From: Mobula hypostoma
Lineage: Eukaryota
Assembly: GCF_963921235.1 (NCBI RefSeq)
Contig: NC_086097.1
Coordinates: 1,488,001 to 1,552,000, forward strand
DNA: 64,000 nt
Reading direction: 5' to 3'
Numbering within the stretch: the first letter of the stretch is position 1; each line of letters starts with the position of its first letter. Shown one piece after another: positions 20,346 through 51,193 of this stretch. The notes beneath the pieces are model-generated. The model ran no database searches. It saw only the letters and a list, made by a program, of their open reading frames with translations, and had not been told where the DNA came from. Position numbers and translations under genes: made by a program.

Positions 20346-22718
20346 AGAATATAGGGAGTTAGGAAGGGAGTTGTAAAAAAGGACGAAAAAGGTAGTAATC
20401 TCGGGATTACTGCCTGTGCTACGCGACAGTGAGAGTAGGAATGCAATGAGATGTAGGATAAATGTGTGGCTGAGAGATTGGAGCAAGGGGCAGGAATTCG
20501 GGTTTTTGGATCATTGGGACCACTGTTGGTACAGGTGTGACCTGTACAAAGGGGACGATTGCACTTGAATCCTAGGGGGACCAATATCCTGGCGGGCAGA
20601 TTTGCGAGGGCTACTAAGGTGACTTTAAACTAGAATGGTTGGGGGGGAGGGAATCAAATTAAGGAGACTAGGAGAGGGGAGGTTGATGCAAGGGAAAAAG
20701 AAGTAGAAGGTAACAAAGTTGTTTGCTCAATTAAGGATAAACAGAGAGTGGGAGGTAGAGTTTCTTAAATGCATCTATTTTAATGCTAGGAGCATTGTAA
20801 GAAAGGTGGATGAGCTTAGAGCATGGATTGATACCTGGAAATATGATGTTGTAGCTATTAGTGAAACGTGGTTGCAGGAGGGGTGTGATTGGCAACTAAA
20901 TATTCCAGGATTTCGTTGCTTCAGGTGTGATAGAATAGGAGGGGCAAGAGGGGGAGGTGTTGCATTGCTTGTCAGAGATTATATAACAGTGGTGCTCTGG
21001 CAGGATAGATTAGTGGACTCGTCTAGGGAGGCTATTTGGGTGGAATTGAGGAATAGGAAAGGTGTTGTGACGCTTATAGGGGTGTATTATAGACCACCTA
21101 ATGGGGACCGAGAACTGGAGGAGCAAATTTGTAAGGAGATAGCAGATATTTATAGTAAGCACAAGGTTGCAATTGTGGGAGATTTTAATTTTCCACACAT
21201 AGACTGGGAAGCCCATTCTGTAAAAGGGCTGGATGGTTTGGAGTTTGTAAAATGTGTGCAGGATAGTTTTTTAAAGCAATACATAGAGGTACCAACTAGA
21301 GAAGGGGCAGTGTTGGATCTCCTGTTAGGGAATGAGATAGGTCGGGTGACGGAGGTATTTGTTGGGGAGCACTTCGGGTCCAGTGATCACAATACAATTA
21401 GTTTCAGTGTAACTATGGAGAAGGATAGGACTGGACCTAGGATTGAGATTTTTGATTGGAGAAAGGCTAACTTTGAGGAGATGTGAAAGGATTTAGAAGG
21501 AGTGGATTGGAAAAATTTGTTTTATGGGAAGGATGTAACAGAGAAATGGAGGTCATTTAAAGGTGAAATTTTGAGGGTTCAGAATCTTTATGTTCCTGTT
21601 AGGTTGAAAGGAAAGGTTAAAAGTTTGAGAGAGCCATGGTTTTCAAGAGATATTAGAAACTTGGTTCAGAAAAAGAGAGAGATCTTCAATAAATATAGGC
21701 AGCTTGGAGTTAATGAGGTACTCGAGGAATATAAAGAATGTAAAAAGAATCTTAAGAAAGAAATTAGAAAAGCTAAAAGAAGATACGAGGCTGCTTCGGC
21801 AAGTAAGGTGAAAATAAATTCAAGGGGTTTCTACGGTTATGTTAGTGGCAAAAGGATAGTGAGGGATAAAATTGGTCCCTTGGAGAATCAGAGTGGACGG
21901 CTATGTGCGGAGCCAAAAGAGATGGGGGAGATTTTGAACTATTTCTTTTCTTCAGTATTCACTAAGGAGAAGGATATTGAATTGTGTAAGGTAAAGGAAA
22001 CAAGTAGGGTAGTTATAGAAAGTATGACAATTAAAGAAGAGGAAGTACTGACACTTTTAAGAAATATAAAAGTGGATAAGTCTCTGGGTCTGGACAAGAT
22101 ATTCCCTAGGACTTTGAAGAAAGTTAGTGTAGAAATAACAAGGGCTCTGACAGAAGTATTTCAAATGGCATTAGAAATGGGAATGGTGCCGGAGGATTGG
22201 CGTATTGCTCATGTTGTTCCATTGTTTAAAAAGGGTTCTAAGAGTAAACCTGGCAATTTTGTGAGTTTGACGTCAGTGGTGGGTAAATTGATGGAAAGTG
22301 TTCTTAGAGATGGTACACATAATTTTCTGGATAGACAGGGTCTGATTAGGAACAGTCGACATGGATTTGTGCGTGGAACGTCATGTTTGACAAATCTTAT
22401 TGAATTTTTTGATGAGGTTACTAAGAAAGTTGACGAGGGTAAAATGGTGGATCTTGTCTATATGGACTTCAGTAAGGCCTTTGACAAGGTTCCACATGGA
22501 AGGTTAGTTAGGGAGGTTCAATCATTAGGCATTAATATGGAAGTAGTAAAATGGATTCAGCAGTGGCTAGATGGGAGATGCCAGAGAGTAGTGGTGGATT
22601 ACTGTGTGTCAGATTGGAGGACGGTGTGTAGCAGTGTGCCTCAAGGATCTGTACTGGGTCCAATCTTGTTTGTAATATATATTAATGATCTAGATGATGG
22701 GGTGGTAAATTGGATTAG

Positions 22719-23616
22719 ACATAGACATAGACATAGACATACTTTATTGATCCCGAGGGAAATTGAGTTTCCTTACAGCTGCACCAACCAAGAATAGAGC
22801 ATAAATATAGAAATACAAAAACCACAAACAATCAAACAACAATATGCAAACTATGCCAGATGGAAATAAGTCCAGGACCGGCCTATTGGCTCAGGGTGTC
22901 TGACCCTCCACAGGAGGAGCTGCAAAGTTCGATGGCCACAGGCAGGAACAACCTCCCATGACGCCCAGTGTTGTATCTTGGTGGAATATGGCTGGAGTCC
23001 AACAGGAAAAAGTGCAATATCCGGGCTACAAACACGTTCCTCGACCGTAATATGACCAAGATTGCATCATCTGTTGTTAACCAGAACAGCAAGCCCCCAA
23101 CTCCTTTACGCTTACCGCCCTCTGTGCACTTCCGGTCAGCCCGAATGGTCTGGAAGCCCTCCATGGAAAAGTTCTTGTCGGGTATGTCCACGTGCAGTCC
23201 AAGTGGAGAACTCCTTTTCTCCTTAAGTCTCTGTTGTCTTGACCTGGTCCTCTTTCCTCGCCTTTTTGATCCCCCTCCGCATCCTCTGTGTGTTTTCCTC
23301 CAGGTTTCAGCTGGGGTGTCCGCCGCTCTGTTCGCTAAACCGGCTGGCATAAGCGCAATCAGCTGGTCCCTGGAATAAACAATGCCACCATACTGCTGCC
23401 TCGCTAATGAGACGTGTCTGAATGTAACTATTTCCAGCGCCAAAAACTCAAATAAAACTCTCTCCACCAGCATGTTAGAGAGGGTGCAGCTTTAACGTGT
23501 TACCGTGAAAAAAATACAACAAATAATGTAAGTTAAAAAAAGTAAGAAGAATAAAGTAAGAAAACTAGTTGGAACGGCTGTAACAGGCTGCATGCACGAC
23601 TGGCGCATGCGCACTA
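22719..23616 (-). mobile_element. Internally deleted non-autonomous Rex1/Babar derivative (~900 bp)
   Basis: GATTAG target-site duplication (22713-18, 23617-22); (CTATGT)n tail and AATAAA; ORF joins an N-terminal/APE remnant directly to the Rex C-terminus ...FLPVAI...GGSDTLSQ. Confidence 0.8.
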
Positions 23617-23797
23617 GATTAGTAAATATGCAGATGATACTAAGATTGGTGGTGTTGTGGATGATATGGTAGGTTTTCAAAACTTGCAGAGAGATTTAGG
23701 ACAGTTAGAAGAGTGAGCTGAAAGATGGCACATGGAGTTTAATGCTGACAAATGTGAGGTGATACATTTTGGTAGAACTAATCAAAATAGGACATAG

Positions 23798-24889
23798 AAC
23801 ATAGAACATAGAATAGTACAGCATAGTACAGGCCCTTTGGCCCACAATGTTGTGCCGACCCTCAAACCCTGCCTCCCATATAACCCCCCACCTTAAATTC
23901 CTCCATATACCTGTCTAGTAGTCTCTTAAACTTCACTAGTGTATCTGCCTCCACCACTGACTCAGGCAGTGCATTCCACGCACCAACCACTCTCTGAGTA
24001 AAAACCTTCCTCTAATATCCCCCTTGAACTTCCCACCCTTACCTTAAAGCCATGTCCTCTTGTATTGAGCAGTGGTGCCCTGGGGAAGAGGTGCTGGCTA
24101 TCCACTCTATCAATTCCTCTTATTATCTTGTACACCTCTATCATATCTCCTCTCATCTTCCTTCTCTCCAAAGAGTAAAGCCCTAGCTCCCTTAATCTCT
24201 GATCATAATGCATACTTTCTAAACCAGGCAGCATCCTGGTAAATCTCCTCTGTACCCTTTCCAATGCTTCCACATCCTTCCTATAGTGAGGTGACCAGAA
24301 CTGGAAACAGTACTCCAAGTGTGGCCTAACCAGAGTTTTATAGAGCTGCATCATTACATCGCTACTCTTAAACTCTATCCCTCGACTTCTGAAAGCTAAC
24401 ATCCCATAAGCTTTCTTAACTACCCTATCCACCTGTGAGGCAACTTTCAGGGATCTGTGGACATGTACCCCCAGATCCCTCTGCTCCTCCACACTACCAA
24501 GTATCCTGCCATTTACTTTGTACTCTGCCTTGGAGTTTGTCCTTCCAAAGTGTACCACCTCACACTTCTCTGGGTTGAACTCCATCTGCCACTTCTCAGC
24601 CCACTTCTGCATCCTATCAATATCTTTCTGCAATCTTTGACAATCCTCTACACTATCTACAGAACCACCAACCTTTGTGTCATGTGCAAACTTGCCAACC
24701 CACCCCTCTACCCCCATATCCAGGTCGTTAATGAAAATCACGAAAAGTAGAGGTCCCAGAACAAATCCTTGTGGGACACCACTAGTCACAACCCTCCAAT
24801 CTGAGTGTACTCCCTCCACCACCACCCTCTGCCTTCTGCAGGCAAGCCAATTCTGAATCCACCTGGCCAAACTTCCCTGGATCCCATGC
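23798..24889 (-). mobile_element. 5'-truncated CR1, same subfamily as 2369-3320, inserted antisense into the host CR1
   Basis: ORF 23962..24870 nearly identical to ORF 2378..3343; (TTCTATG)n tail at ~23795. Confidence 0.92.
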
Positions 24890-25759
24890 GTGGTAAATGG
24901 TGGACATTAAAGAATGCTTTAGAACAGAGGGATCTAGGAATAATGGTGCATAGTTCCCTGAAGATGGAATCTCATGTGGATAGGGTGGTGAAGAAAGCTT
25001 TTGGTTTGCTGGCCTTTATTAATCAGAGCATTGAGTATAGGAGTTGGGATGTAATGCTGAATTTGTATAAGGCATTGGTAGGGCCAAATCTGGGGTATTG
25101 TATGCAGTTCTGGTCACCGAATTATAGGAATTATAAAATTGAGAGAGTACAGAGGAGATTTACTAAAATGTTGCCTGGGTTTCATCTCTTAAGTTACAGA
25201 GAAAGGTTGAACAAGTTAGGTCTTTATTCTTTGGAACGTAGAAGGTTGAGGGGAGACTTGATAGAGGTATTTAAAATTATGAGGGGGATAGATGGAGTTG
25301 ACTTGGTTAGACTTTTTCCATTGAGAGTGGGGAAGATTCAAACAAGAGGGCATGGGTTGAGAATTAGAGGACGAAAGTCTAGGGGTAACATGAGGGGGAA
25401 CTTCTTTACTCAGAGAGTGGTAGTTGTGTGGAACGAGCTTCCAGCAGAAGTGGTTGAGGCAGGTTCGATGTTGTTGTTTAAAGTTAAATTGGATACATAT
25501 AAGGACAGGAAAGGAATGGAGGCGTTATGGGCTGAGTGCAGGTCAGTGGGAATAGGATAGGGTAAGAGTTCGGCACGGACTAGAATGGCTGAGATAGCCT
25601 GTTTCCGTGCTGTAATTGTTATATGGTTATATATGGTTATATGGTAACTGGGCGGTACGTTACGCAGCATCCACACAAGTGTGATTTCCCAGTTTGGCGG
25701 GGCCAGAGGCTGTTTTCCCCTGGACGAAGACCAGCTGGCCAAGCCTGAAGGTTACATAC

Positions 25760-26140
25760 ATATATCAAATAGATTTTTAAAATGTGCAAAAACAGAAACA
25801 CTGTATATTAAAAAATAAGTGAGGTTGTGTCCAAAGCTTCAATGTCCATTTAGGAATCAGATGGCAGAGGGGAAGAAGCTGTTCCTGAATCACTGAGTGT
25901 GTGCCTTCAGGCTTCTGTATCTCCTCCCTGATGGTAACAGTGAGAAAAGGGCAGCCCTGGGTGCTGGAGGTCCTTAATAATGGACGCTGCCTTTCTGAGA
26001 CACCGCTTCCTAAAGATGTCCTGGGTACTTTGTAGGCTAGTGCCCAAGATGGAGCTGACTAGATTTACAACCTCCTGCAGCTTTTTTTGGTCCTGTGCAG
26101 TAGCTCCTCCGTACCAGACAATGATGTAGCCTGTCAGAAC
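25760..26140 (-). mobile_element. Decayed Rex1/Babar-like 3' fragment
   Basis: GGGAAGAAGCTGTTCCTGAA and CTGCAGCTTTTTTTGGTCCTG match the equivalent part of the 1290-1560 element. Confidence 0.65.
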
Positions 26141-27635: not shown

Positions 27636-27639
27636 TGGA

Positions 27640-29355: not shown

Positions 29356-29359
29356 ACTA

Positions 29360-30966: not shown

Positions 30967-31049
30967 CACTAAAATAACAAAATCCAATAAGTATAAGTAG
31001 CAGACTTGTACAGTTTTCCTCATTCTTCTCATTGGTTTAAATAATTTGG

Positions 31050-33804: not shown

Positions 33805-34676
33805 TCTTACGTAACTGGCAACAATGAATATCAATCGAGACAGGTTATATAAAAACAACCAAACATTTATTAGACACGGATAAACAATAAAAAAAACAAA
33901 TGAAAACCTTAACTGGAAGTTAACCGCTAGGCGGCCATTCAACAAATCACCACTCAGTACTGGTTCTTAAAGCGATAAATGCGAAATCAGTTCTTAAAGC
34001 GGTAAAGTCAAATACAGTTCTTAAAATGGTAAATTCGAAAGTCCAACAGATTTATACATTCATATGGGAGAGACATCTCTGGAGAAGGATTTCTTCATAG
34101 ACGCAACTTTCCAGCTGGTTCTGTCCAAAAGGATTCATGATGAAGGAAATAAACAGCTTAAAGCAACTGACCTGTCTTCTGGTGAGAAAATCCTGCGTGA
34201 ACTACCTTGCTCTTTTGGCAGGAGTTATCTTCGATGCAGGTCACTACTTCTTCAATGAAGACTCAATAAGATCGATCCTTTGTTAAACTGCCGAAAGATA
34301 CCAACTTCTCTTAATCCTTCAGGTCCTGTACTTTGATAAAGTCTTCACTCTCCAATACTACTGAAAAGGTACATCAACAAATCTGGCAGAAATGGGTAAA
34401 CTGCCAATCCAGCACTATTGTACCTTACAATAGAATGTAACACTCCGTTTTAAAAATGAAACTGCGTCATAAAACAAATATGCAATGGAACAGAGACACT
34501 GACTAATGTTCTAGCTGGAAAACTAACTGCGTGACCAGGGTCTTCCCTTTTATACCCGTGGTGAACATGTCATCACATGACCTCACATCGGTGGGAAAAT
34601 TACATCAGGTGACCTTCAAAAGACCATTACATCATTCTCACAAGAAAGCTACAAGAGCTCCTTGAGGTATGTAACA
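33805..34676 (-). repeat. 3' LTR
   Basis: Direct repeat of 43101-43973; begins TGTTAC on the minus strand after the purine tract; AATAAA at 33866-71. Confidence 0.95.
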
Positions 34677-34685
34677 CCTCCCTCC
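34677..34685 (-). promoter_or_regulatory. Polypurine tract (GGAGGGAGG)
   Basis: Purine run immediately 5' of the 3' LTR on the minus strand. Confidence 0.85.
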
Positions 34686-34926
34686 AAAAATAAAATTTCC
34701 CTCTTAAGGAACAAAATTTTAAGAATTAAGAATTTACACCAAAAAAAATACAAAGGTATAAAATTTGCAAGATACACCATGTACATGGTATTATCTTTCA
34801 GCACTTTACAAACTAATATACAGTAGGAGTGTTACGAATGTTAGAATACCACGCCCAAAAAACATTTCATTGTACATTTAACATCTAGATAGACAATCAG
34901 CGATCACATTATCTTTACCTTTAATA

Positions 34927-37900
34927 GAAACATAGAAACATAGAAAATAGGTGCAGGAGTAGGCCATTCGGCCCTTTGAGACTGCACCACCATTTATTAT
35001 GATCATGGCTGATCATCCAACTCAGAACCCCGCCCCAGCCTTCCCTCCATACCCCCTGATCCCCGTAGCCACAAGGGCCATATCTAACTCCCTCTTAAAT
35101 ATAGGCAGTGAACTGGCCTCAACTGTTTCCTGTGGCAGAGAATTCCACAGATTCACCACTCTCTGTGTGAAGAAGTTTTTCCTAATCTCGGTCCTAAAAG
35201 GCTTCCCCTTTATCCTCAAACTGTGGCCCCTTGTTCTGGACTTCCCCAACATCGGGAACAATCTTCCTGCATCTAGCCTGTCCAATCCCTTTAGGATTTT
35301 ATACGTTTCAATAAGATCCCCCCTCAATCTTCTAAATTCCAACGAGTACAAGCCCAGTTCATCCAGTCTTTCTTCATATGAAAGTCCTGCCATCCCAGGA
35401 ATCAATCTGGTGAACCTTCTTTGTACTCCCTCTATGGCAAGGATGTCTTTCCTCAGATTAGGGGACCAAAACTGCACACAATACTCCAGGTGTGGTCTCA
35501 CCAAGGCCTTGTACAACTGCAGTAGTACCTCCCTGCTCCTGTACTCGAATCCTCTCACTATAAATGCCAGCATACCATTCGCCTTTTTCACCCCCTGCTG
35601 TACCTGCATGCCCACTTTCAATGACTGGTGTATAATGACACCCAGGTCTCGTTGCACCTCCCCTTTTCCTAATCGGCCACCATTCAGATAATAATCTGTT
35701 TTCCTATTTTTGCCACCAAAGTGGATAACTTCACATTTATCCACATTAAATTGCATCTGCCATGAATTTGCCCACTCACCCACCCTATCCAAGTCACTCT
35801 GCATCCTCTTAGCATCCTCCTCACAGCTAACACTGCCACCCAACTTCGTGTCATCCGCAAGCTTGGAGATGCTGCATTTAATTCCCTCATCCAAGTCATT
35901 AATATATATTGTAAACAACTGGGATCCCAGCACTGAGCCTTGCGGTACCCCACTAGTCACCGCCTGCCATTCTGAAAAGGTCCCGTTTATTCCCACTCTT
36001 TGCTTCCTGTCTGCTAACCAATTCTCCATCCACATCAATACCTTACCCCCAATACCGTGTGCTTTAAGTTTGCACACTAATCTCCTGTGTGGGAGCTTGT
36101 CAAAAGCCTTTTGAAAATCCAAATATACCACATCCACTGGTTCTCCTCTATCCACTCTACTAGTTACATCCTCAAAAAATTCTATGAGATTCATCAGACA
36201 TGATTTTCCTTTCACAAATCCATGCTGACTTTGTCCGATGATTTCACCGCTTTCCAAATGTGCTGTTATCACATCTTTGATAACTGACTCCAGCAGTTTC
36301 CCCACCACCGACGTTAGGCTAACCGGTCTATAATTCCCCGGTTTCTCTCTCCCTCCTTTTTTAAAAAGTGGAGTTACATTAGCCACCCTCCAATCCTCTG
36401 GAACTAGTCCAGAATCTAATGAGTTTTGAGAAATTATCACTAATGCATCCACTATTTCTTGGGCTACTTCCTTAAGCACTCTAGGATGCAGACCATCTGG
36501 CCCTGGGGATTTATCTGCCTTCAATCCCTTCAATTTACCTAACACCACTTCCCTACTAACATGTATTTCGCTCAGTTCCTCCATCCCACTGGACCCTCTG
36601 TCCCCTACTATTTCTGGAAGATATTTATGTCCTCCTTAGTGAAGACAGAACCAAAGTAATTATTCAATTGGTCTGCCATGTCCTTGCTCCCCATAATCAA
36701 TTCACCTGTTTCTGTCTGCAGGGGACCTACATTTGTCTTTACCAGTCTTTTCCTTTTTACATATCTATAAAAGCTTTTACAGTCCGTTTTTATGTTCCCT
36801 GCCAGTTTTCTCTCATAATCTTTTCTCCCCTTCCTAATTAAGCCCTTTGTCCTCCTCTGCTGAACTCTGAATTTCTCCCAGTCCTCAGGTGAGCCACTTT
36901 CTCTGGCTAATTTGTATGCTTCTTCTTTGGAATTGATACTATCCCTAATTTCTCTTGTCAGCCACGGGTGCACTACCTTCCTTAATTTATTCTTTTGCCA
37001 AACTGGGATGAACAATTGTTGTAGTTCATCCATGCAACCTTTAAATGCTTGCCATTGCATATCCACCGTCAATCCTTTAAGTGTCATTTGCCAGTCTATC
37101 TTAGCTAATTCACGTCTCATACCTTCAAAGTTACCCCTCTCTAAGTTCAGAACCTTTGTTTCTGAATTAACTATGTCACTCTCCATCTTAATGAAGAATT
37201 CCACCATATTATGGTCACTCTTATCCAAGGGGCCTCTCACGACAAGATTGCTAATTAACCCTTCCTCATTGCTCAAAACCCAGTCCAGAATAGCCTGCTC
37301 TCTAGTTGGTTCCTCGACATGTTGGTTCAGAAAACCATCCCGCGTACATTCCAAGAAATCCTCTTCCTCAGCACCTTTACCAATTTGGTTCACCCAATCT
37401 ACATGTAGATTGAAGTCACCCATTATAACTGCTGTTCCTTTATTGCACACATTTCTAATTTCCTGTTTAATACCATCTCCGACCTCACTACTACTGTTAG
37501 GTGGCCTGTACACAACTCCCACCAGCGTTTTCTGCCCCTTAGTGTTACGCAGCTCTACCCATATCGATTCCACATCTTCCCGGCTTATGTCCTTCCTTTC
37601 TATTGCGTTAATCTCTTCTTTAACCAGCAACACCACCCCACCTCCCCTTCCTTCATGTCTATCCCTCCTGAATATTGAATATCCCTGAATGTTGAGCTCC
37701 CATCCTTGGTCACCCTGGAGCCATGTCTCTGTGATCCCAACTATATCATAATCATTAATAACAATCTGCACTTTCAATTCATCCACCTTATTACGAATGC
37801 TCCTTGCATTGACACACAAAGCCTTCAGGTGCTCTTTTACAACCCTCTTAGCCCTTATACAATTATGTTGAAAAGTGGCCCTTTTTAATGCTTGCCCTGG

Positions 37901-38450
37901 ATTTGTCGGCCTGCCACTTTTACTTTTCTCCTTAGTACTTTTTGCTTCTACCCTCACTTTACACTCCTCTGTCTCTCTGCACTGGTTCCCATCCCCCTGT
38001 TGTGAACTAACCTCCTCACGCCTAGCCTCTTTAATTTGATTCCCACCCCCCAACCATTCTAGTTTAAAGTCACCTCAGTAGCCCTCGCTAATCTCCCTGC
38101 CAGGATATTGGTCCCCCTAGAATTCAAGTGTAACCTGTCCTTTTTGTACAGGTCACGCCTGCGCCAAAAGAGGTCCCAATGATCCAAAAACTTGAATCCC
38201 TGCCCCCTGCTCCAATCCCTCAGCCACGCATTTATCCTCCGCCTCATTGCATTCCTACTTTCACTGTCGCGTAGCACAGTCAGTAATCCCGAGATTACAA
38301 ACTTTGCTGTCCTTTTTCTCAACTCCCTTCCTAGCTCCCTATATTCTCCTTTCAGGACCTCATCCCTTTTCCTACCTATGTCATTGGTACCTATATGTAC
38401 CACGACCTCTGGCTCCTCACCCTCCCACTTCAGGATATCTTGGACACGAG
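34927..38450 (-). mobile_element. Young CR1 (ORF1 3' half plus ORF2 with one frameshift) inserted in the Gypsy RNase H C-terminus
   Basis: ORFs 38059..38403, 36608..38053, 35022..36584; (TTTCTATG)n tail; ATA shared at both junctions; the Gypsy frame ...QEYDILITHIKGKDNVIADCLSR rejoins across it. Confidence 0.95.
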
Positions 38451-39640
38451 ATATGAGTGATTAAAATATCGTACTCCTGTAACATTAAACTCCAATTTAA
38501 TCATCTTCTATTTTTGTTTCTCATCTTACTCAAAAACACTAACGGATTGTGATCGGTTTTAACTTTAAGTGGTTTATGAGTAGTACCAACATACAGTTCA
38601 AAATGTTGTAAAGCCAAAACAAGGGATAATAATTCCTTTTCTATTGTTGAATAATTTCTTTGATGGGCATTAAATTTCTTGGAAAAATAAGCTACCGGAC
38701 AATCAACTTCATCACCATCATCTCTTTGAAGTAACACTGCTCCTGCAGCTTCATCACTAGCATCTGCAACTAACAAAAATGGTTTTTCAAAGTCAGGAGA
38801 GTTGAGTACAGGTTGACTACATATTATAGTTTTCAATTTATCAAATGCTTCCTGACAAGACTCTGTCCAAACCAACTTTTCATTTTTCTTCAAGAAATTA
38901 GTTAATGGAAGAGCAATCCTCGCAAAATTCTTACGAAATTTTCTGTAATATCCTACCATACCCAAGAATCTTCTGAGAGTTTTCTTACCAGTTGGAGTGG
39001 GTACTTCTAAAATTGCCTGAACTTTTGCTTGAACAGGAGCTCATTTTTCTTGACCCACAACATAACCAAGGTAGGTCACTGTGGCATGGCCAAATTCACT
39101 TTTAGCTAAGTTAATAGTTAAGTTAGCTTTTGAAAGTCTCTCAAATAGTTTCTCCACCACAGTAATATGTGCTTTCCACATATTATTTCCTGTAACTAAA
39201 TCATCAATATAGGCATCTGTATCTTTTAATCCATGAATCACACTATTAATCATCCTCTGAAAAGTACCTGGTGCATTCTTCATCCCAAATGGAAGAACAT
39301 TATATTCATATAACCCAGATGGAGTTACAAATGCAGAACTCTCTCTACCTCTATCCGTCAATGGAACACACCAATAATCTTTTAACAAATCAATCTTTGT
39401 AAGGAATTTGGCTTGTCCAACTTTATCCACACAATCATCTACCCTAGGGATTGGATATGCATCAGTTTTTGTCACAGCATTTGCCTTCTTGTAATCTGTA
39501 CAAAACCTAATACTATTGTCTGGCTTAGGCACCATAACACACAGTGAACTCCAATTTGAATTAGAATGTCTAATAATATCATTCTCTAACATATACTTAA
39601 TTTCTTGTTCGGCAAGTTCACATTTTCCCCTGTTCATTCA
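38451..39640 (-). pseudogene. Gypsy reverse transcriptase and RNase H (disrupted)
   Basis: IRFCTDY, LPFGMKNAP, YIDDLV; VADASD, YFSKKF, YSTIEKELL, TDHNPL. Confidence 0.93.
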
Positions 39641-39988
39641 ATATGGATGTTGTTTTATGGGTTTTGCATCTCCCACATCTACTCATGTGAAGCTACGGTG
39701 GTTCTTTTAGGAATGTCTGGAAATAAATCTCTATATTTAAAAATTAACTGTTTCATCTGCTCTCTCTGCTTGGCTGTAAATGAGCTAATTTCTCATCAAT
39801 ATTTTCCAGAATTGTTGAATTTGGTAATCTGGCAGAAATAATGTTGATTTAAAATATGTTTCAGTTGAATCATCCATTAGGTTTTTATCAAGATCAGACT
39901 CATTATTGACCACAACAGTCATAGTAGCAGCCTGTTTCTCATAATGCAGTTTTATCATATTTATATGACACAGCTGTGTTGGCTTTCT

Positions 39989-41203
39989 TCAATCTGGGGT
40001 TTTTATCACATAATCCACATCATTTACCTTAGATTTAATCTCATAAGGACCATGAAATGTAGCTTGTAATGGGTTCGTTTGCACCAGGAAAAGAACCAAC
40101 TCCTTACCTCCAGGCTTAAATGACCTCATCCTAGCTTCCTTATCATTCAAAGTCTTCATCTTCTCCTGAGCCAATTTTAAATTTTCCTTTGCCAAGCTAC
40201 AAGCTTTATATAATCTTTCTTTAAATTCTAAAACATAATCTAGCAAATTAGTGTGTACTTCTTTATTAATCCACTGTTCCTTCAACAAGGCCAAAGGTCC
40301 TCGATCTCTATGCCCAAACACAAGTTCAAAAGGACTAAAACCTAATGATTTCTGTACTGCCTCCCTTACTGCAAAAAGTAGTAAATGTACACCTTCATCC
40401 CAGTCCTTTTCATTTTCCACACAGTATGTCCTAATCATAGTTTTTAATGTGGAATGGAATCTCTCCAAGGCTCCTTGTGATTCTGGATGATAGGCTGATG
40501 AGATAATCTGTTTTGCTCCCAGTTTATAAACTATCTGCTGAAACAATCCCGACATAAAATTACTACCTTGATCAGATTGTATTTCCTCAGGCAATCTAAA
40601 ATAAGTAAGGAATTATATAAGAGCCTTTGTCACAGTTTTTGCTGTTATATTCCTAAGAGGTATTGCCTCTGGAAACCTAGACGCGATGCACATAATAGTT
40701 AACCAATATTGATGTCCAGTTTTAGTTTTTGGCAAAGGACCTACACAGTCTACAATGATTTTTGGGAACGGCTCACCAAATGCTGGAATTGGTTGCAGTG
40801 GAGCCACTGGAGTAACCCGATTAGGTTTACCCACAATTCTACACGTATGATACGTTCTGCAAAATGCCACCACGTCCTTTCTTAAACTAGGCGAATAAAA
40901 ATTTTTAAAAACCTTGTTCATAGTTTTCTTTACACCTAGATGACCACTCAAAGGAATACTATGAGCCATAGTTAAAATCTCATTTCGATAAACTTTAGGA
41001 ACTACTACCTGGTGATCAACCTCCCATTCCTCACTAGCAGGAATTATAGGCAATCTCCACTTTCTCATTAATACTCCCTTTTCAAAATAATATCCTACTA
41101 CCACTTTCTTAATTTCACTATCTGGAAGAGCTTGTTCCTTTAATTTAACTATCTCAGGATCTCTACCTTGCTCTACTATCATCTCCTTCCGAGATAAAGA
41201 CAA
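39989..41203 (-). pseudogene. Gypsy integrase (Zn-binding region plus DDE core), upstream of RT
   Basis: HSIPLSGHLG, IVDCVGPLP, QSDQGSNF, SAYHPESQGALER. Confidence 0.93.
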
Positions 41204-41287
41204 ATCTTCATGGTCAGTCTTACTACCAAAATCCTGATCAAATAATGTAGGTAAGAGAGTTTCTGATACATCCTCAAAATTTGAATC

Positions 41288-43013
41288 TTAAGTTGAACAG
41301 TCATGAGTAACATAGCTCTTTTTAGCCATAGCTCTTGTTACCACGCAGGAAGAATCTGTGTTAGAATCCCTCTGTGGTTCCTCAGAATTTGGATTTATTG
41401 TTAAATGCACTTCAGGAAAAACTTGTCCGCCTGCTAAGTCATTCCCTAACAAAAGAGAAACATCATTCACAGGTAAACTGGATTGTAGTCCTACTTTAAC
41501 AACCCCTGTAAATAAACCTGACCTTAAATTTACTCTATGTAAATGTACTGGCATAAGGACACTCCCAGCTCTTCCTATATAGTTTACCTCACCAATGTCA
41601 GACTCATCACTAAACTTTAGCACACTGTCTAATATTACTGATTGAGAAGCTCCAGTATCTCTAAGTATTCTTATTGGTACTGAATTGGATCCTTCTTTCA
41701 AGGATACAAATACTACTGTTATAAAAGATTCATATCCCCTCTTAACCTGGTCAGAATCTGACAAAACTTCATTGGGATTTATCAAACTCTGTGCATTTAC
41801 AGGTGTTTCCCTATGCTGCACACAAGCATCAGGGACAGCTTCCTTCTCTTTCTTTTCCAATCAAAAACAGTTGGCTATTACATGTCCCGGTTTCTTACAA
41901 TAATTACAAATATTACCAAAATGTCTTTCCTTCACATGTCTCCCTTCATCCTTACTTTTCTCAATAACTTCAGATTTAATTTCTGGTTTACCTTGACTCT
42001 CTGTCCTAGTTTTCCTTTTAAAAGTTCTACCTGGAGAAAATTTATTCTTATGAATTAAAGCACATTCATCAGCTAATTTAGCAGTCTCCTGCAATGTAGA
42101 AGTGTCCCTTTCATTTAAGTATGTTCTCACTTCAACGGGAATGCTTCTTTTAAATTCCTCCAGTAAAATCAACTCTTTTAATTTATTATACTCCCCATTC
42201 ACATTTTTAGAAGAAACCCATCTCTCAAAACACACAGATTCCTCGTAGGCAAGTTCCACATAAGCTTTTTCCACAGATTTCTTCAAATTTCTGATTCTTT
42301 CTCTATACGCTTGCGGAACCAACTCATATGCCTTTAATATATGCTGTTTAACAATATCATAATCTGGTGCTTGCTCAGCATTTAAAGCTGTATAAACTTG
42401 TTGTGTCTTGCCTTTAATTACACTTTGTAACATCACTGGCCATTGCTGTTTTGGCCACCCTAAACTAGAGCAAAATTTCGAAATGCTGGAAATATTTGTC
42501 CACTTCAGCTTCATTAAATGGAGGAGCCAAAATAACCTCACGACTAGCAATTAACTGTTTCTTAGAACCAGAAGACTGATTTCCCATCCTTAATTTCTCC
42601 ATCTCTAACTCAAATTTCCTCTGGTTTTCAGCTTCTCTTTCTTTAAATTCCCTTATTTTATGGGCCTCTCTAGCCTTGAATTCCTTCTGTTTATTTTCAG
42701 CTTCTAACCGACTTCTTTTCAAATCAGCTTCTAATTGGTTTAACTTTATTTGTTCAAGACGTAACTGCATTTCCAGATTACTCATTGGAAACCTATCTAA
42801 CACCTCATCCTCAAACGTTTTCTAACTTATATAATGCTCCGCGATTTTTCTTTGAGTTAACACCTTTGTGGTACTCTTCATAATTCCCTTAATATCCAAC
42901 CTCCTAGCAATCTCCGATACAACAGGTTTTTTTGCATTTGCTAAAAACTCCGGGTCAGGCGAATCCATAAAGTCATCAATATTCATTGCTGCCGAATACC
43001 ACTCACACACCAA
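41288..43013 (-). pseudogene. Gypsy gag (capsid/SCAN-like region, CCHC knuckle) and aspartic protease (disrupted)
   Basis: GWPKQQWPVMLQSVIKGK, LILLEEFK, CNYCKKPGHVIANC; protease ILRDTGASQS, LLLGND. Confidence 0.88.
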
Positions 43014-43075
43014 TCAAATTTTAAAATAATCGGGTACTTCCCTTTTCCAAATCAGAATGGCAAATTTAGAACAAG

Positions 43076-43093
43076 ATCCCGGACGAGCCCCCA
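43076..43093 (-). promoter_or_regulatory. Primer binding site, tRNA-Pro
   Basis: TGGGGGCTCGTCCGGGAT on the minus strand, the canonical 18-nt tRNA-Pro PBS (as in MLV). Confidence 0.93.
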
Positions 43094-43100
43094 CAATATA

Positions 43101-43973
43101 TGTTATGTAACCGGCAACAATGATTATCAATCAAGACAGGTTATATAAAGACAGCCAAACATTTATTAAAAATGGATAAACAATAAAAAAAAACAAACGA
43201 AAACCTTAACTGGAAGTTAACCGCTATGCGGCCATTCAACAAATCACCACTCGCTACTGGTTCTTAAAGCGATAAATGCGAAAACAGTTCTTAAAGCGGT
43301 AAAGTCAAATACAGTTCTTAAAATGGTAAATTCAAAAGTCCAACAGATTTATACATTCAATTGGGAGAGACTTCTCTGGAGAAGGATTTCTTCGTAGACG
43401 CAACTTTCCTGCTGGTTCTGTCCAAAAGGATTCACGATGAAGGAAATAAACAGCTTAAAACAACTGACCTTTCTTCTGGTGAGCAAATTCTGCATGAACT
43501 ACCTTGCTCTTTTGGCAGGAGTTGTCCTCGATGCAGGTCACTACTTCTTCAATGAAAACTCAATAAGATCGATCCTTCATTAAACTGCCGAAACATACCA
43601 ACTTCTCTTAATCCTTCAGGTCCTGTACTTCGATAAAGTCTTCACTCTCCAATACTACTGAAAAGGTACATCAACAAATCTGGCAGAAATGGGTAAACTA
43701 CCAGTCCAGCACTATTGTACCTTACAATAGAATGTAACACTCCGTTTTAAAAATGAAACTGCGTCATAAAACAAATATGCAATGGAATGGAGACACTGAC
43801 TAACGTTCTAGCTGGAAAACTAACTGCGTGACCAGGGTCTTCCCTTTTATACCCGTGGTGAACATGTCATCACATGACCTCACATCGGTGGGAAAATTAC
43901 ATCAGGTGACCAACAAAAGACCATTACATCATTCTCTCAAGAAAGTCACAAGATCTCCTTGAGGTATGTAACA
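43101..43973 (-). repeat. 5' LTR (TGTTAC...TAACA) with TATAAAA at 43845-43851
   Basis: Direct repeat of 33805-34676; TG...CA termini. Confidence 0.95.
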
Positions 43974-45710
43974 CTATTCCTCTCCAATGTTATGGTAAAG
44001 GAGATAGAATTGTGATTACTGTCTCCAAAATGCTTTTCCACTAAGAGATCTGACACCTGACCAGGTTCATTTCCCAATTCCAGATCAAGTACAGCCTCTC
44101 CTCTTGTAGGCTTATCTACATACTGTGCCAAGAAACCTTCCTGAACACACCTAAACTCTACCCCATCTAAACACCTTGCTGTAGGGAGGTACCAATCAAT
44201 ATTTGGGAAATTAAAATCTCCCATCACGACAACCCTGTTATTATTACTCCTTTCCAGAATCTGTCTCCCTATCTGCTCCTTGATGTCCCTGTTACTACTG
44301 GGTGGTCCTGATCCACGCTCTAAGATCATCTTCTTTGTTCGTTATACTTCTTGCATTAAAATAGACACATTTCAGACCATCGATCTGAGCGCGTCCCTTC
44401 TCTATCACCTACCTATCCTCCCTCTCACACTGTCTACAGGCTTTCTGTATTAGTGAACCAATTGCCCATTCCTCCGTCTCTTCAGTTTGGTTCCCACCCC
44501 CCAACAATTCTAGTTTAAACTCTCCCCAGTAGCCTTAGCAAACCTCCCTGCCTGGATATTGGTCCCCCTGGGCTTCAAGTGCAACCTGTCCTTTTTGTAC
44601 AGGCCACACCTGCCCCAAAAGAGATCCCAATGATCCAGAAATCTGAATCCCTGCCCCCTGCTCCAATCCTTCAGCCACGCATTTATCCTCCACCTCACTA
44701 TATTCCTATACTCACTGTCATGTGGCACAGGCAGTAATCCCGAGACGACTACCTTTGAGGTCCTGCTTCTCAACTTCCTTCCGAACTGTCTGAAGTCTGT
44801 CTACAGGACCTCTTCCCTTTTCCTAGCTATGTCGTTGGTGCCAATATGTGCCACGACCTCTGGCTATTCTCCTTCGTACTTCAGGATATCGTGGACATGA
44901 TCTGAAACATCTCGGACCCTGGCACCTTGGAGGCAAACTACCATCCACGTTTCTTTCCTGCATCCACAGAATCACCTGTCTGAACCCCTAACTATAGAGT
45001 CCCCTATCACTACTGCCTTCTTCTTCCTTCCTCTACCCTTCTGAGCCGCAGGGCCAGACTCTGTGCCAGATGTGCGGCCACTGTTGCTTCCCCCAGGTAG
45101 GCCATCCCCCCCAACAGTACTCAGACAGGAGTACTTATTGTTCAGGGGGACAGCCATGGGGTACTCTCTAGCATCTGACTCTTGCCCTTCCCTCTCGTGA
45201 TTGTTACCCACTTACATGTCTCCCGAGGCCCCGGGGTGACTACCTGCATATAGCTCCTATCTATCATCTCCTCACTCTCTGACCAGCCAGAGGTCATCGA
45301 GCTGCATCTCCAGTTCCCTAATGCGGTTCCTCAGGAGCTGCTGCAGCTTGACGCACCTGGTGTAGATGTGGCCGCCGGGAGGCTGGGAGTCTTCAGGACT
45401 TCCCACATCTGACACTGAGCACAGAACAACGGCCTCACATACGTACTTCCTGTCTGTATTCTACACAGGCAACCTACCACGCCTTGACCCATTATCGCCA
45501 AAGCCCCGTTGAACCAAAGCCCTCCTACTCTGTCCCCCTCTACTTCGTCACCCGCTCCTCCTAAGCCTGCTCTATAAAACTGTTTCCTTTTAAACTCTTC
45601 TCACTGTTCAAACTGGCTGACGTCCACGCGTTTGCGCAGTCGTACCTCGATTAAATGCTGAAGAAATAACCGTCTCCTTTTAAACTCTCTTCACTGTTCT
45701 AACTGGCTGT

Positions 45711-46285
45711 CATTGTTGTTCCACATACAGTCTGTGCAAGTGTTGTCCACATACAGTCTGTGTGAGCATCAATGTGCAGCCTCTGTGAATGTTGAAGTAC
45801 AGTCTGTGAGTGTTGTTCACGTACAGTCTGAGTGTTTTTGATATTTAGTCACTGTGAGTGTGTGAGTCATTGTCATACAGTGTGTAAATGCTGTCGAAAT
45901 ACAGTCTCTGTGTATTGTCCATGTACGGTCTGTGTGAATGTTGTCGATGTGTAGTCTGTGCAAGTGTTGGTCTGTGAGTGTCAAAGTACAATCTGTGTGA
46001 GTGTTGATGTACAGTCTGTGAATTTCGAAGTACAGTCTGTGAGTGTCCATGTACAGTCTGTGTGATTGTTGTCCTTGTACAGTCTATGTGAGTGGCATTG
46101 ACACACAGACTGTAAATGTTATTGACATACAGTCAGTGAGTGTTGTCCATGTACAGTCTGTGTAAGCATTGTTCACATACAGTCTCTGTTTGTGTTATCC
46201 ACATACAGTCTGTGTGAGTGTCGATGTACAGTCTGAGTGTCAATGTGCAGTCTGTGAGTGGTGAGGTACAGTCTGTGTGAGTGTT
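45711..46285. repeat. Degenerate outlying part of the 26-bp satellite
   Basis: Recurring TACAGTCTGTG(TGAG) cores with irregular spacing. Confidence 0.85.
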
Positions 46286-49200
46286 CATAAGACCATAAGA
46301 TTTAGAAACATAGAAACATAGAAAATAGGTGCAGGAGTAGGCCATTCAGCCCTTCGAGCCTGCACCGCCATTTATTATGATCATGGCTGATCATCCAACT
46401 CAGAACCCCGCCCCAGCCTTCCCTCCATACCCCCTGACCCCCGTAGCCACAAGGGCCATATCTAACTCCCTCTTAAATATAGCCAATGAACTGGCCTCAA
46501 CTGTTTCCTGTAGCAGAGAATTCCACAGATTCACCACTCTCTGTGTGAAGAAGTTTTTCCTAATCTCGGTCCTAAAAGGCTTCCCCTCTATCCTCAAACT
46601 GTGGCCCCTCGTTCTGGACTTCCCCAACATTGGGAACAATCTTCCTGCATCTAGCCTGTCCAATCCCTTTAGGATCTTATACGTTTCAATCAGATCCCCC
46701 CTCAATCTTCTAAATTCCAACGAGTACAAGCCCAGTTCATCCAGTCTTTCTTCATATGAAAGTCCTGCCATCCCAGGAATCAATCTGGTGAACCTTCTTT
46801 GTACTCCCTCTATGGCAAAGATGTCTTTCCTCAGATTAGGGGACCAAAACTGCACACAATACTCCAGGTGTGGTCTCACCAAGGCCTTGTACAACTGCAG
46901 TAGTACCTCCCTGCTCCTGTACTCGAATCCTCTCGCTATAAATGCCAGCATACCATTCGCCTTTTTCACCGCCTGCTGTACCTGCATGCCCACTTTCAAT
47001 GACTGGTGTATAATGACACCCAGGTCTCGTTGCACCTCCCCTTTTCCTAATCGGCCACCATTCAGATAATAATCTGTTTTCCTATTTTTGCCACCAAAGT
47101 GGATAACTTCATATTTATCCACATTAAATTGCATCTGCCATGAATTTGCCCACTCACCCAACCTATCGAAGTCACCCTGCATCCTCTTAGCATCCTCCTC
47201 ACAGTTAACACTGCCACCCAACTTCGTGTCATCCGCAAGCTTGGAGATGCTGCATTTAATTCCCTCATCCAAGTCATTAATATATATTGTAAACAACTGG
47301 GGTCCCAGCACTGAGCCTTGCGGTACCCCACTAGTCACCGCCTGCCATTCTGAAAAGGTCCCGTTTATTCCCACTCTTTGCTTCCTGTCTGCTAACCAAT
47401 TCGCCACCCACACCAATACCTTACCCCCAATACCGTGTGCTTTAATTTGCACACTAATCTCCTGTGTAGGACCTTGTCAAAAGCCTTTTGAAAATCCAAA
47501 TATACCACATCCACTGGTTCTCCCCTATCCACTCTACTAGTTACATCCTCAAAAAATTCTGAGATTCGTCAGACATGATTTTCCTTTCACAAATCCATGC
47601 TGACTTTGTCCGATCATTTCACCGCTTTCCAAATGTGCTGTTATCACATCCTTGATAACTGACTCCAGCAGTTTCCCCACCACCGATGTTAGGCTAACCG
47701 GTCTATAATTCCCCGGTTTCTCTCTCCCTCCTTTTTTAAAAAGTGGAGTTACATTAGCCACCCTCCAATCCTCTGGAACTAGTTCAGAATCTAATGAGTT
47801 TTGAAAAATTATCACTAATGCATCCACTATTTCTTGGGCTACTTCCTTAAGCACTCTAGGATGCAGACCATCTGGCTCTGGGGATTTATCTGCCTTCAAT
47901 CCCTTCAATTTACCTAACACCACTTCCCTACTAACATGTATTTCGCTCTGTTCCTCCACCCCACTGGACCCTCTGTCCCCTACTATTTCTGGAAGATATT
48001 TATGTCCTCCTTAGTGAAGACAGAACCAAAGTAATTATTCATTTGATCTGCCATGTCCTTGCTCCCCGTAATCAATTCACCTGTTTCTGTCTGCAGGGGA
48101 CCTACATTTGTCTTTACCAGTCTTTTCCTTTTTACATATCTATAAAAGCTTTTACAGTCCGTTTTTATGTTCCCTGCCAGTTTTCTCTCATAATCTTTTC
48201 TCCCCTTCCTAATTAAGCCCTTTGTCCTCCTCTGCTGAACTCTGAATTTCTCCCAGTCCTCACCCACTTTCTCTGGCTAATTTGTATGCTTCTTCTTTGG
48301 AATTGATACTATCCCTAATTTCTCTTGACAGCCACGGGTGCACGACCTTCCTTGATTTATTCTTTTGCCAAACTGGGATGAACAATTGTTGTAGTTCATC
48401 CATGCAACCTTTAAATGCTTGCCATTGCATATCCACCGTCAATCCTTTAAGTGTCATTTGCCAGTCTATCTTAGCTAACTCACGTCTCATACCTTCAAAG
48501 TTACCCCTCTTTAAGTTCAGAACCTTTGTTTCTGAATTAACTATGTCACTCTCCATATTAATGAAGAATTCCACCATATTATGGTCACTCTTACCCAAGG
48601 GGCCTCTCACGACAAGATTGCTAATTAACCCTTCCTCATTGCTCAAAACCCAGTCCAGAATAGCCTGCTCTCTAGTTGGTTCCTCGACATGTTGGTTCAA
48701 AAAACCATCCCGCATACATTCCAAGAAATCCTCTTCCTCAGCACCTTTACCAATTTGGTTCACCCAATCTACATGTAGATTGAAGTCACCCATTATAACT
48801 GCTGTTCCTTTATTGCACACATTTCTGATTTCCTGTTTAATACCATCTCCGACCTCACTACTACTGTTAGGTGGCCTGTACACAACTCCCACCAGCGTCT
48901 TCTGCCCTTTAGTGTTACGCAGCTCTACCCATATCGATTCCACATCTTCCTGGCTTATGTCCTTCCTTTCTGCGTTAATCTCTTCTTTAACCAGCAACGC
49001 CACCCCACCTCCCCTTCCTTCATGTCTATCCCTCCTGAATATTGAATATCCCTGAACGTTGAGCTCCCATCCTTGGTCACCCTGGAGCCATGTCTCTGTG
49101 ATCCCAACTATATCATAATCATTAATAACAATCTGCACTTTCAATTCATCCACCTTATTACGAATGCTCCTTGCATTGACACATAAAGCCTTCAGGCACT

Positions 49201-51193
49201 CTTTTACAACTCTCTTAGCCCTTATACAATTATGTTGAAAAGTGGCCCTTTTTAATGCTTGCCCTGGATTTGTCGGCCTGCCACTTTTACTTTTCTCCTT
49301 AGTACTTTTTGCTTCTACCCTCACTTTACACCCCTCTGTCTCTCTGCACTGGTTCCCATCTCTCTGTTGTGAACTAACCTCCTCACGCCTAGCCTCTTTA
49401 ATTTGATTCCCACCCCCCAACCATTCTAGTTTAAAGTCACCTCAGTAGCCCCCGCTAATCTCCCTGCCAGAATATTGGTCCCCCTAGGATTCAAGTGTAA
49501 CCCGTCCTTTTTGTACAGGTCACGCCTGCGCCAAAAGAGGTCCCAATGATCCAAAAACTTGAATCCCTGCCCCCTGCTCCAATCCCTCAGCCACGCATTT
49601 ATCCTCCACCTCATCGCATTCCTACTCTCACTGTCGCGTGGCACAGGCAGTAATCCCGAGATTACAAACTTTGCGGTCCTTTTTCTCAACTCCCTTCCTA
49701 GCTCCCTATATTCTCCTTTCAGGACCTCATCCCTTTTCCTACCTATGTCATTGGTACCTATATGTACCACGACCTCTGGCTCCTCACCCTCCCACTTCAG
49801 GATATCTTGGACACGATCAGAAATATCCTGGACCCTGGCACCAGGGAGGCAAACTACCATCCGGGTCTCTGGATTTAGGAGCAGTAGTAGGCCATTTGGC
49901 CCATTGAGTCTGCTCTACCATTCAATCATGGGCTCATCCAATTCTTCCAGTCATCCCCACTCCCTGACTTCTCCCCATACCCTTTGATGCCATGGCTAAT
50001 CAAGAACCTATCTATCTCTGCCTTAAATACACCCAATGACTTGGCCTCCACAGCTGCTCGTGGCAGCAAATTCCATAGATTTACCACCCTCTGGCTAAAG
50101 TAATTTCTCCACAGTTCAGTTCAAAAAGGACGTCCTTCAAATCCTGAAGTCGTGCCCTCTTGTCCTAGAATCCCCTACCATGGGAAATAACTTTGTCATA
50201 TCTAATCTGTTCAGGCCTTTTAACATTCAGAATGTTTCTATGAAATTACCCCTCATTCTCCTGAATTCCAGGGAATACAGCCCAAGAGCTGCCAGACATT
50301 CCTCATATGGTAACCTTTTCATTCCTGGAATCATTCTCATGAAACTTCTCTGAACCCTCTCCAATGTCAGTATATCCTTTCTAAAATAAGGAGCCCAAAA
50401 CTGCACACAATACTCCGTGTGGCCTCACGAGTGCCTTATAGAGCCTCAACATCACATCCCTGCTCTTATATTCTATACCTCTAGAAATGAATGCCAACAT
50501 TACATTTGCCTTCTTCACAACTGAGTCAACCTGCAGGTTAACCTTTAGGGTATCTTGCACAAGGACTCCAAGTCCCTTTCCATCTCCGCATTTTGAATCA
50601 TCTCCTCATCTAAATAATAGTCTGCTTGTTTATTTCTTCCACCATTATATTTCATTTGCTACTTCTTTGCCCATTCCCCTAAACTATCTAAGTCTGTCTG
50701 CAGGCTCTCTGTTTCCTCAACACTACCCGCTCCTCCACCTATCTTTGTATCATTAGCAAATTTAGCCACAAATCCCTTAATGCCGTAGTCCAAATCATTG
50801 ACGTACATCGTAAAAAGCAACGGTCCTAACACCTATCCCTGTGGAACTCCACTGGTAACGAACAGCCAGCCAGAATAGGATCCTTTTATTCCCACTCCAC
50901 CCATGATAGTAACTTCCCTGGAATTCCATGGGATCTTATCTTGCTAACCAGCCTCATGTCCAGCACCTCGTCAAAGACCTTCAAAAAAATCCAAGCACAC
51001 CATACCTACTGCATCTCTTTTGTCTACCCTGCTTGTAATTTCATCAAAGAAGTACAGTAGGTTTCTCAGGCAGGATTTTCCTTTCAGGAAACCATGCTGG
51101 CTTTGGCCTATCTTGTCATGTGTCTCCAGGTACTCCATAATCTCATCCCTAAGGATTGATTCCAACAACTTCCCAACCACTGATGTCAGGCTA
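46286..51193 (-). mobile_element. 5'-truncated CR1 inserted in the satellite and itself split by a younger CR1
   Basis: Tail CATAAGACCATAAG at 46286; 3' UTR/RT resumes at 49872; GQSQHGFLKGKSCL at ~51100; similar to 16824-17799. Confidence 0.85.
46306..49871 (-). mobile_element. Young CR1, near-identical sibling of 34927-38450
   Basis: ORFs 49426..49860, 48260..49420, 47983..48267, 47549..47959, 46400..47452; 7-bp TSD GATTTAG (46299-305, 49872-78). Confidence 0.95.

Follow-up and report, generated by a model that had tools for sequence, protein, structure and literature searches.

The locus studied here raises the question of how the second open reading frame (ORF2) of CR1 long interspersed nuclear elements (LINEs) is translated, when it has no early start codon and is not in frame with ORF1. 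The window, a stretch of 64,000 nucleotides (nt) of the ray Mobula hypostoma (RefSeq assembly GCF_963921235.1, contig NC_086097.1, positions 1,488,001 to 1,552,000, forward strand), contains five decayed CR1 copies, each with an ORF1 for an SGNH/GDSL esterase and an ORF2 for an apurinic/apyrimidinic endonuclease (APE) and a reverse transcriptase (RT). In these copies, ORF1 terminates with Leu-Asn-stop (LN-stop), written on the heptamer U_UUA_AAC. This heptamer is very probably a programmed −1 ribosomal frameshift site, from which an ORF1p-ORF2p fusion would be made in these CR1 LINEs. Such shifting is a known mechanism, which appears to be undescribed in the CR1 family and comes with an unusual candidate stimulator.

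Exact matches to TTTAAACTAGAA were found at five positions of the window, 4849(+), 20624(+), 38068(−), 44519(−) and 49435(−), vs a mean of 0.32 matches in shuffled sequence with one mismatch tolerated. Thereby, all five TTTAAAC-TAG-AA sites of a preliminary description of this DNA were recovered. Besides these five (hereafter the 4.8-kb, 20-kb, 38-kb, 44-kb and 49-kb copies), no further ORF1 end was found in the window by tblastn with ORF1 C-termini as query, so that the count of five heptamers at five ends is unselected. The codon before the heptamer is AGT (4.8-kb, 44-kb) or ACT (20-kb, 38-kb, 49-kb), always with wobble T, and Leu is TTA in 5/5, as had been described. The −1 frame reads TTT AAA CTA GAA at the junction and is closed 2–5 codons upstream of the heptamer. 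It is open up to the endonuclease in three of the five copies, for 486 (38-kb), 391 (49-kb) and 223 (4.8-kb) codons; ORF2 of the 44-kb copy is in the −1 frame with one stop, and the frame of the 20-kb copy is broken by indels.

The encoded domains are those of canonical CR1 LINEs with an esterase (type IV) ORF1, namely a Cys-motif esterase ORF1, an APE-RT ORF2 and an 8-bp 3′ microsatellite. ORF1 carries an N-terminal Cys motif and the esterase, and its homologue P0001 matches the ZfL2-1 ORF1 esterase 4C1B (E 9e-28). ORF2 shows Pfam PF03372/PF14529 (endonuclease) followed by PF00078 (RT); the endonuclease profile matches the L1 endonuclease 1VYB (E 1.5e-11), while a PDB search with a single endonuclease sequence gave no match. 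CR1 elements end in a short microsatellite and not in poly(A), and (TTTCTATG)n ends the 38-kb, 49-kb and 4.8-kb copies.

The first in-frame AUG of ORF2 is codon 216 in the 38-kb copy, 215 in the 49-kb copy and 85 in the 4.8-kb copy; the previous estimate of about 210 AUG-free codons for the first two was therefore sound. In the alignment to the L1 endonuclease, the motifs NARS, ITETW, YRPP and GDFN correspond to N14, E43, Y115 and D145, which we take to be active-site residues. In the 38-kb copy, the four equivalents are found at codons 87, 114, 187 and 218, with the first Met at codon 216.

For the evaluation of heptamer conservation, the kinship of the five copies has to be considered. The 38-kb and 49-kb copies are 97.6% identical over 3.5 kb, and the 4.8-kb and 44-kb copies are ~86–88% identical. 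Between the three lineages of the window (junctions 4849, 20624 and 38068), identity is 82–96% over the terminal 120 nt of ORF1 and the 34 nt that follow the heptamer, and 36–57% beyond. The apparent break comes ~35 nt behind the heptamer, immediately after a G run. Four-fold degenerate sites at the ORF1 end are ~85% identical between these lineages (30/35, 28/33, 11/13 and 11/13), those in the RT 20–39% (10/50, 19/49 and 13/48); a control pair of distant loci (L009/L022, see below) shares 17/40 such sites in ORF1 and 28/53 in the endonuclease. Because silent sites are similar at the ORF1 end and diverged in the RT, one ORF1-plus-junction cassette was presumably recombined onto three old ORF2 lineages. 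ORF1 evolution in the CR1 group has been described as reticulate (PMC4120745; here and below, statements on published papers refer to excerpts of them). With ORF1 and junction being a shared cassette on three diverged ORF2 lineages, the five copies amount to about one observation. Also, 75% of the upstream ORF1 columns are invariant among the window copies, and ORF1 contains a 14-nt invariant run. The invariance of the heptamer across divergent subfamilies, on which the preliminary description relied, is therefore within the window no more than kinship gives, and conservation beyond protein coding was not seen there, given the ~85% identity of four-fold sites at the ORF1 end.

Distant relatives were obtained from metagenomes using a degenerate esterase-end pattern that did not include the heptamer, which gave 29 loci (L numbers). 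L034 was a low-complexity false match, and L015, L019 and L027 were rejected, having no endonuclease behind, no heptamer and a closed −1 frame. Ten loci were left out as decayed or too short (L008, L010, L011, L012, L016, L017, L018, L023, L029, L031), five of which keep the heptamer. The intact set consisted of the remaining 15 loci and three window copies, i.e. 18 junctions from nine lineages, with 20–42% ORF1 identity between lineages. A canonical heptamer (X_XXY_YYZ) in ORF1 phase and inside the ORF1/ORF2 overlap was present in 16 of these 18 junctions and in seven of the nine lineages, and none was out of phase. Its class switches between lineages: U_UUA_AAC occurs in the window, L007, L009, L022 and L024, G_GGA_AAC in L020 and L025, A_AAA_AAC in L013, L014, L021, L028, L030 and L033, and G_GGU_UUU plus U_UUU_UUA in L035. 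Elsewhere in the same ORFs, in-phase canonical heptamers were found at 23 of 6,237 codon positions. Without the window lineage, six of eight lineages are canonical, which gives P 1.1e-7 against this background rate and P 1.8e-4 when codons are redrawn synonymously with the protein sequence kept. Thereby, the synonymous-site constraint that had been proposed as a check was found across lineages.

The frame of ORF2 was examined at 33 junctions (28 loci and the five window copies). In 20 of these, the stretch between the ORF1 stop and the beta-1 motif of the endonuclease is open; ORF2 is in −1 at 19 of the 20, in +1 at one and in frame 0 at none. No AUG was found within the overlap of the 18 intact junctions, and in 16 of them the first in-frame Met lies behind the Asn equivalent to N14. 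The RT of the metagenome loci, which are putative CR1 relatives, is 41–54% identical to the window RT over 84–203 residues. Best named matches were Lamellibrachia (58–61%; L009, L022, L024), Portunus (59%; L035) and a sawshark (50%; L007), and for the remaining loci snow crab (29–40%). Protein-seeded locus searches of metagenomes and viral contigs gave nothing useful, and six prokaryote-genome loci (24–30% identity) were regarded as SGNH hydrolases of bacteria and set aside. The ORF1 of L025 has a low-complexity C-terminal extension of well over 100 residues, with G_GGA_AAC and the stop at the new end.

On the protein level, the best ORF1 homologue (97% identical) is annotated in M. hypostoma itself, followed among the named matches by proteins of skates, stingrays and sharks. 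The C-terminus is LN in 30 of 38 homologues, with variable preceding residues. In alignment A1, 31 of these 38 proteins had been selected for complete ends, and therefore its invariant terminal Asn was not counted. From a wider set, the best 150 of 6,759 representatives (50% identity), 91 were scorable by an esterase end motif 22–40 residues from the C-terminus; 46 of them end with LN and nine with GN, and 61 are Asn-terminal. One snake and one swallow protein are among those ending with LN. QGN ends occur in snow crab proteins, and other invertebrate-type matches were named Portunus and the tubeworm Lamellibrachia. Several database entries (P0029, P0033, P0012, P0022) are artefacts: in the stingray gene models P0029 and P0033, translation runs from ORF1 into ORF2 in the −1 frame, CR1 ORF1s carry names of host genes, and one entry on a 4-kb contig is labelled Pseudomonas aeruginosa, which is probably contamination.

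Vertebrate consensus sequences were taken from the supplement of PMC13343379, in excerpts of 400 characters that were read by eye, with species assigned from abbreviated labels. In 18 of these sequences, from alligator, crocodile, bearded dragon, bullfrog, coelacanth, bowfin, eel, elephant shark, sawfish, stingray, catshark and dogfish, TTTAAAC closes ORF1 and is followed by TAG (11), TAA (6) or TGA (1). These were 11 of 12, six of eight and one of three TTTAAAC matches with the respective stop, the others being 5′ regions or other LINE types. Eight synonymous variants that break the heptamer before TAG gave 13 matches, none of them at a CR1 ORF1 end, and hence none of the changes by which the preliminary description would have been contradicted was seen at a CR1 junction in these excerpts. 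Judging from these sequences, the stop codon after the heptamer is free to vary, and the heptamer is not. The window junction matches sequences labelled LINE/CR1, and the chondrichthyan ones (sawfish, stingray, catshark, dogfish, elephant shark) have the same junction as the window copies; chondrichthyan L2 elements are described as lacking ORF1 (PMC13343379). TTTAAACTAG/TAA was also seen upstream of ORF1, in the 5′ region of the dogfish SquAca_CR1-3 and -18 in the same supplement.

Contigs of four sequencing runs were aligned to the 38-kb junction (8,559, 9,371, 2 and 375 contigs, the two large sets being DNA runs). Of 40 variants listed, 37 are in the 99 nt of ORF1 upstream and three further downstream; the 42 nt that begin with the heptamer and end with the G run have none among those listed, a result regarded as supporting only.

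Class switching of the heptamer, the free identity of the stop, the breadth of LN-stop ends from ray to snake and swallow, and a −1 ORF2 without AUG before the endonuclease are the reasons to assume a signal on the RNA level. The conclusion that synonymous conservation reflects such a signal can therefore be kept, on the grounds of distant relatives instead of the window copies, which represent one cassette. Most ribosomes would stop at the ORF1 stop and release ORF1p, while a minority would slip back by one base at the codons for Leu and Asn and continue translation, which in the 38-kb copy would give Leu-Glu-Trp.... Slippage at a low rate would set a high ORF1p:ORF2p ratio, similar to gag-pol. 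The least certain step is the pause. We tentatively attribute it to the stop directly behind the heptamer together with six G (G6) starting at +10, most likely as a protein-binding site.

This G6 run had been overlooked in the preliminary description. At least six G start exactly at +10 nt in all five window copies and in L007, L008, L009, L011, L022, L024 and L020, i.e. in four lineages and two heptamer classes; L032 has five G at +9. The background of such G-run starts is 1 in 2,663 positions, and if Gly-Gly were required in the −1 frame, the G letters at wobble positions would have P ~7e-4. Among the 18 consensus junctions, a run of at least four G is found at +9/+10 in nine and nearer in four, and not clearly in five. 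The run is missing in L025, L026, L035 and the A_AAA_AAC group. A C-rich stretch ~15–30 nt behind A_AAA_AAC in L013, L033 and L021, which recalls the arterivirus poly(C)-binding motif, is not present in L014, L028 and L030.

The usual 3′ stimulator of a −1 shift is a pseudoknot or hairpin 5–9 nt downstream, sometimes a protein-bound motif. For the 38-kb and 49-kb copies, a pairing GUGGGAAUC / GGUU..UUCAC had been proposed. This stem exists, with a 7-bp consensus, −2.7 kcal/mol and one compensatory pair, but is not significant; as stimulator it was rejected, since it lies ~20 nt from the heptamer and folds no better than shuffles (z −0.8 to +0.6). A G-quadruplex was likewise rejected, giving a marginal two-tier fold in three of the five window copies, while most other lineages have no four G tracts. 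A protein may bind the G run.

Several observations weigh against a frameshift. The fusion protein is a prediction from sequence. No significant local structure was detected in 17 of the 18 intact junctions (80 nt folded, z −1.5 to +1.7), the exception being L025, in which a hairpin begins 7 nt behind the heptamer (z −3.9) and the G run is missing. No local hairpin was significant in the window junctions, no Rfam frameshift element was found at the junction (three chance-level matches elsewhere), and no long-range partner of the G run was conserved, the best duplexes being at unrelated places. Two of the nine lineages are non-canonical, L026 with G_GAU_UUU and L032 with G_AAU_UUU, and the P values overstate independence, because the lineages are related. 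L020 and L025 carry a Met 1–3 residues before the endonuclease motif, where initiation would be possible. The ORF2 of L029 is open in +1, in a locus that looks decayed, with a G run one base short and ORF1 open for only 55 codons. Among the 91 scorable representatives, 36 end with neither LN nor GN, judged on the protein level, and 59 of the 150 were not scorable. The 18 consensus junctions are a count that, with excerpts of 400 characters, has no denominator. In the contig data, 11 more variant rows stand outside the 40 listed, divergent contigs were clipped, and a 15-nt variant-free stretch also occurs in ORF1.

Of the alternatives to the frameshift, termination and reinitiation fares best and is still improbable. 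Ribosomes would terminate at the ORF1 stop and begin anew at a non-AUG codon of the −1 frame, and the conserved letters would be a reinitiation signal. There are precedents, since L1 ORF2 is thought to use AUG-independent initiation (PMC5009743) and SART1 a UAAUG stop-start (PMC3894237); both are, like CR1, bicistronic LINE RNAs that need little ORF2p, but they reinitiate and give a separate ORF2p, whereas the CR1 ORF2, which has no AUG, overlaps with ORF1 in the −1 frame at a heptamer. Reinitiation would suit the stop, which in most lineages follows the heptamer immediately, and the failure to find a shift-stimulating structure, but it predicts neither the X_XXY_YYZ pattern nor its phase nor the switching between four classes. 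Furthermore, the heptamer is 37–40 nt upstream of the stop in the six A_AAA_AAC loci, and the −1 codon over the stop is CUA, with no AUG in the overlap in 18/18.

Less probable still is that protein constraint or common descent alone retained these letters, with Leu-Asn being required at the C-terminus of ORF1p and a recent ORF1 cassette being common to the copies. For the window taken alone this holds, with junction silent sites ~85% identical, and in many homologues LN closes the last helix of the esterase. Among the distant loci, however, all eight that end with LN-stop have Leu as TTA and a preceding wobble T, and other ORF1 ends, QGN, PGN, KN plus ~10 residues and GFL plus three, are also written on heptamers. 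The synonymous null (P 1.8e-4) and an ORF2 left without a start likewise speak against it. Equally improbable is a spliced or slipped transcript, with CUAG as splice acceptor or a base added by polymerase slippage: U_UUA_AAC_UAG does end in YAG, A_AAA_AAC is a homopolymer and the NCBI models P0029 and P0033 read into −1, but the stop is TAA or TGA, hence without AG, in seven of the 18 consensus junctions, G_GGA_AAC and U_UUA_AAC are not homopolymers, a G run behind the stop cannot join the frames, and the two models may be copies with an upstream indel.

A programmed −1 frameshift would place CR1 beside several known systems. With retroviruses, LTR (long terminal repeat) retrotransposons and coronaviruses it shares the most shift-prone X_XXY_YYZ classes and a polymerase ORF in −1 after a structural ORF; unlike viral −1 sites, 17 of the 18 CR1-type junctions appear to have no pseudoknot or strong hairpin 5–9 nt downstream. 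No protease domain was detected in ORF2 by Pfam search, and hence the fusion would stay whole unless cut by the host. In the arterivirus PRRSV, the −2/−1 shift in nsp2 depends on a C-rich motif 9–10 nt behind the site, without RNA structure, bound by poly(C)-binding protein (PCBP) and nsp1-beta (PMC6675879). The fixed ~10-nt spacing and a short homopolymer-rich motif are common to both, while the CR1 motif is G-rich and its binding protein hypothetical. Among APE-type non-LTR elements, Dictyostelium TRE5-A/TRE3-A are said to need a −1 frameshift for ORF2, in a passage that gives no heptamer, stimulator or experiment (PMC5911963), and the part of PMC5006619 covered adds nothing further. These elements differ from CR1 in an unrelated ORF1, restriction to a single protist lineage and targeting of tRNA genes.

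LINE ORF2 translation has been called an open question (PMC3894237), and the excerpts of that paper discuss reinitiation and an internal ribosome entry site and not frameshifting. A review of frameshifting names, in the part covered, HeT-A, TART and L1 only and CR1 not once. CR1-group elements have been described as the dominant retrotransposons of most vertebrates (PMC13343379), and that study does not cover CR1 ORF2 translation in the portions seen ('frameshift' and 'slippery' 0 times in the supplement, 'translation', 'start codon' and 'overlap' 0 times in the text). No report of CR1 frameshifting was found in the literature searched, which did not extend to the 1990s papers on CR1 of chicken and turtle, Kapitonov and Jurka 2003 and the Repbase notes; the chance that an overlap or frameshift in CR1 has been suggested in passing is about one in three. 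If the frameshift is correct, CR1 would express its ORFs in a Gag-Pol-like manner. The RT would be linked covalently to ORF1p, with its esterase and RNA-packaging roles, and cis preference could arise simply from this link. AUG-based ORF2 annotations would lose part of the endonuclease, and the recognition of intact, potentially active copies would change. A G run that stimulates the shift without RNA structure would add a new type to the known frameshift signals. A broader model is doubtful as a whole: in esterase-ORF1 CR1s, from annelid/crab-type lineages to sharks, crocodilians and birds, RT would be made only as fusion, the shift would be stimulated by a G6-bound protein, and the cassette would be swapped between ORF2 lineages together with ORF1. 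This would be a counterpart, in a cellular element, of the trans-activated frameshifting of arteriviruses.

Table 1. Features of the five CR1 copies in the window (positions within the 64,000 nt)
Feature	Position	Strand	Details
Slippery heptamer U_UUA_AAC, last two ORF1 codons (Leu-Asn), 38-kb copy	38062..38068	-	ORF1 stop TAG 38059-38061
G6 run, 10 nt after heptamer, candidate stimulator, 38-kb copy	38046..38051	-	
ORF1 3′ part (5′-truncated), SGNH/GDSL esterase, 38-kb copy	38062..38448	-	Pfam PF13472 E 2.7e-13; tblastn
ORF2 5′ part, −1 frame, 38-kb copy	36611..38068	-	486 open codons: linker, then APE endonuclease from ~codon 80
First AUG, 38-kb copy	37423	-	codon 216
ORF2 3′ part, RT, 38-kb copy	35025..36635	-	Pfam PF00078 E 9e-31; copy-specific frame break before
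3′ terminal 8-bp microsatellite (TTTCTATG)n, 38-kb copy	34924..34946	-	
Slippery heptamer, 49-kb copy	49429..49435	-	TAG 49426-49428; G6 49413-49418
49-kb CR1 copy	46303..49869	-	ORF1 esterase 49429-49869; ORF2 −1, 391 open codons; first AUG 48793
Slippery heptamer, 44-kb copy	44513..44519	-	TAG 44510-44512; G6 44497-44502
44-kb CR1 copy, near-complete decayed ORF1 and ORF2 start	43981..45438	-	
Slippery heptamer, 20-kb copy	20624..20630	+	TAG 20631-20633; G7 20641-20647, one extra G; ORF2 frame broken
20-kb CR1 copy, ORF1 remnant, endonuclease and RT remnants	20347..22704	+	third ORF2 lineage
Slippery heptamer, 4.8-kb copy	4849..4855	+	TAG 4856-4858; G6 4866-4871
4.8-kb CR1 copy, ORF1 remnant, ORF2 −1	4136..7862	+	223 open codons; first AUG 5101 (codon 85)

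Also, some further repeats were found in the window (Table 1 lists the CR1 features). The 44-kb CR1 copy is interrupted by an LTR retrotransposon (33807-43974, −), in which the 38-kb CR1 copy is nested; the 3′ part of the 44-kb copy appears to continue past the insertion at 33804-31619, and both parts are 87–88% identical to the 4.8-kb copy. The LTR element has ~870-bp direct repeats (33807-34677 and 43103-43974, 95% identical) and the domain order SCAN, zinc finger, integrase, RT and RNase H, with frames broken by stops; integrase before RT is presumably the order of Gmr1-like elements. A 26-bp satellite of ~445 copies extends from 51336 to 62836, with a related short array at ~45700-46290. 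A 36-bp tandem repeat with 20 copies and three long open frames (10944-11669) lies at the end of a CR1 fragment. At 63066-63998 (−), an RT fragment of a different LINE type, 25% identical to the CR1 RT, carries a Pfam ALKBH8_N match.

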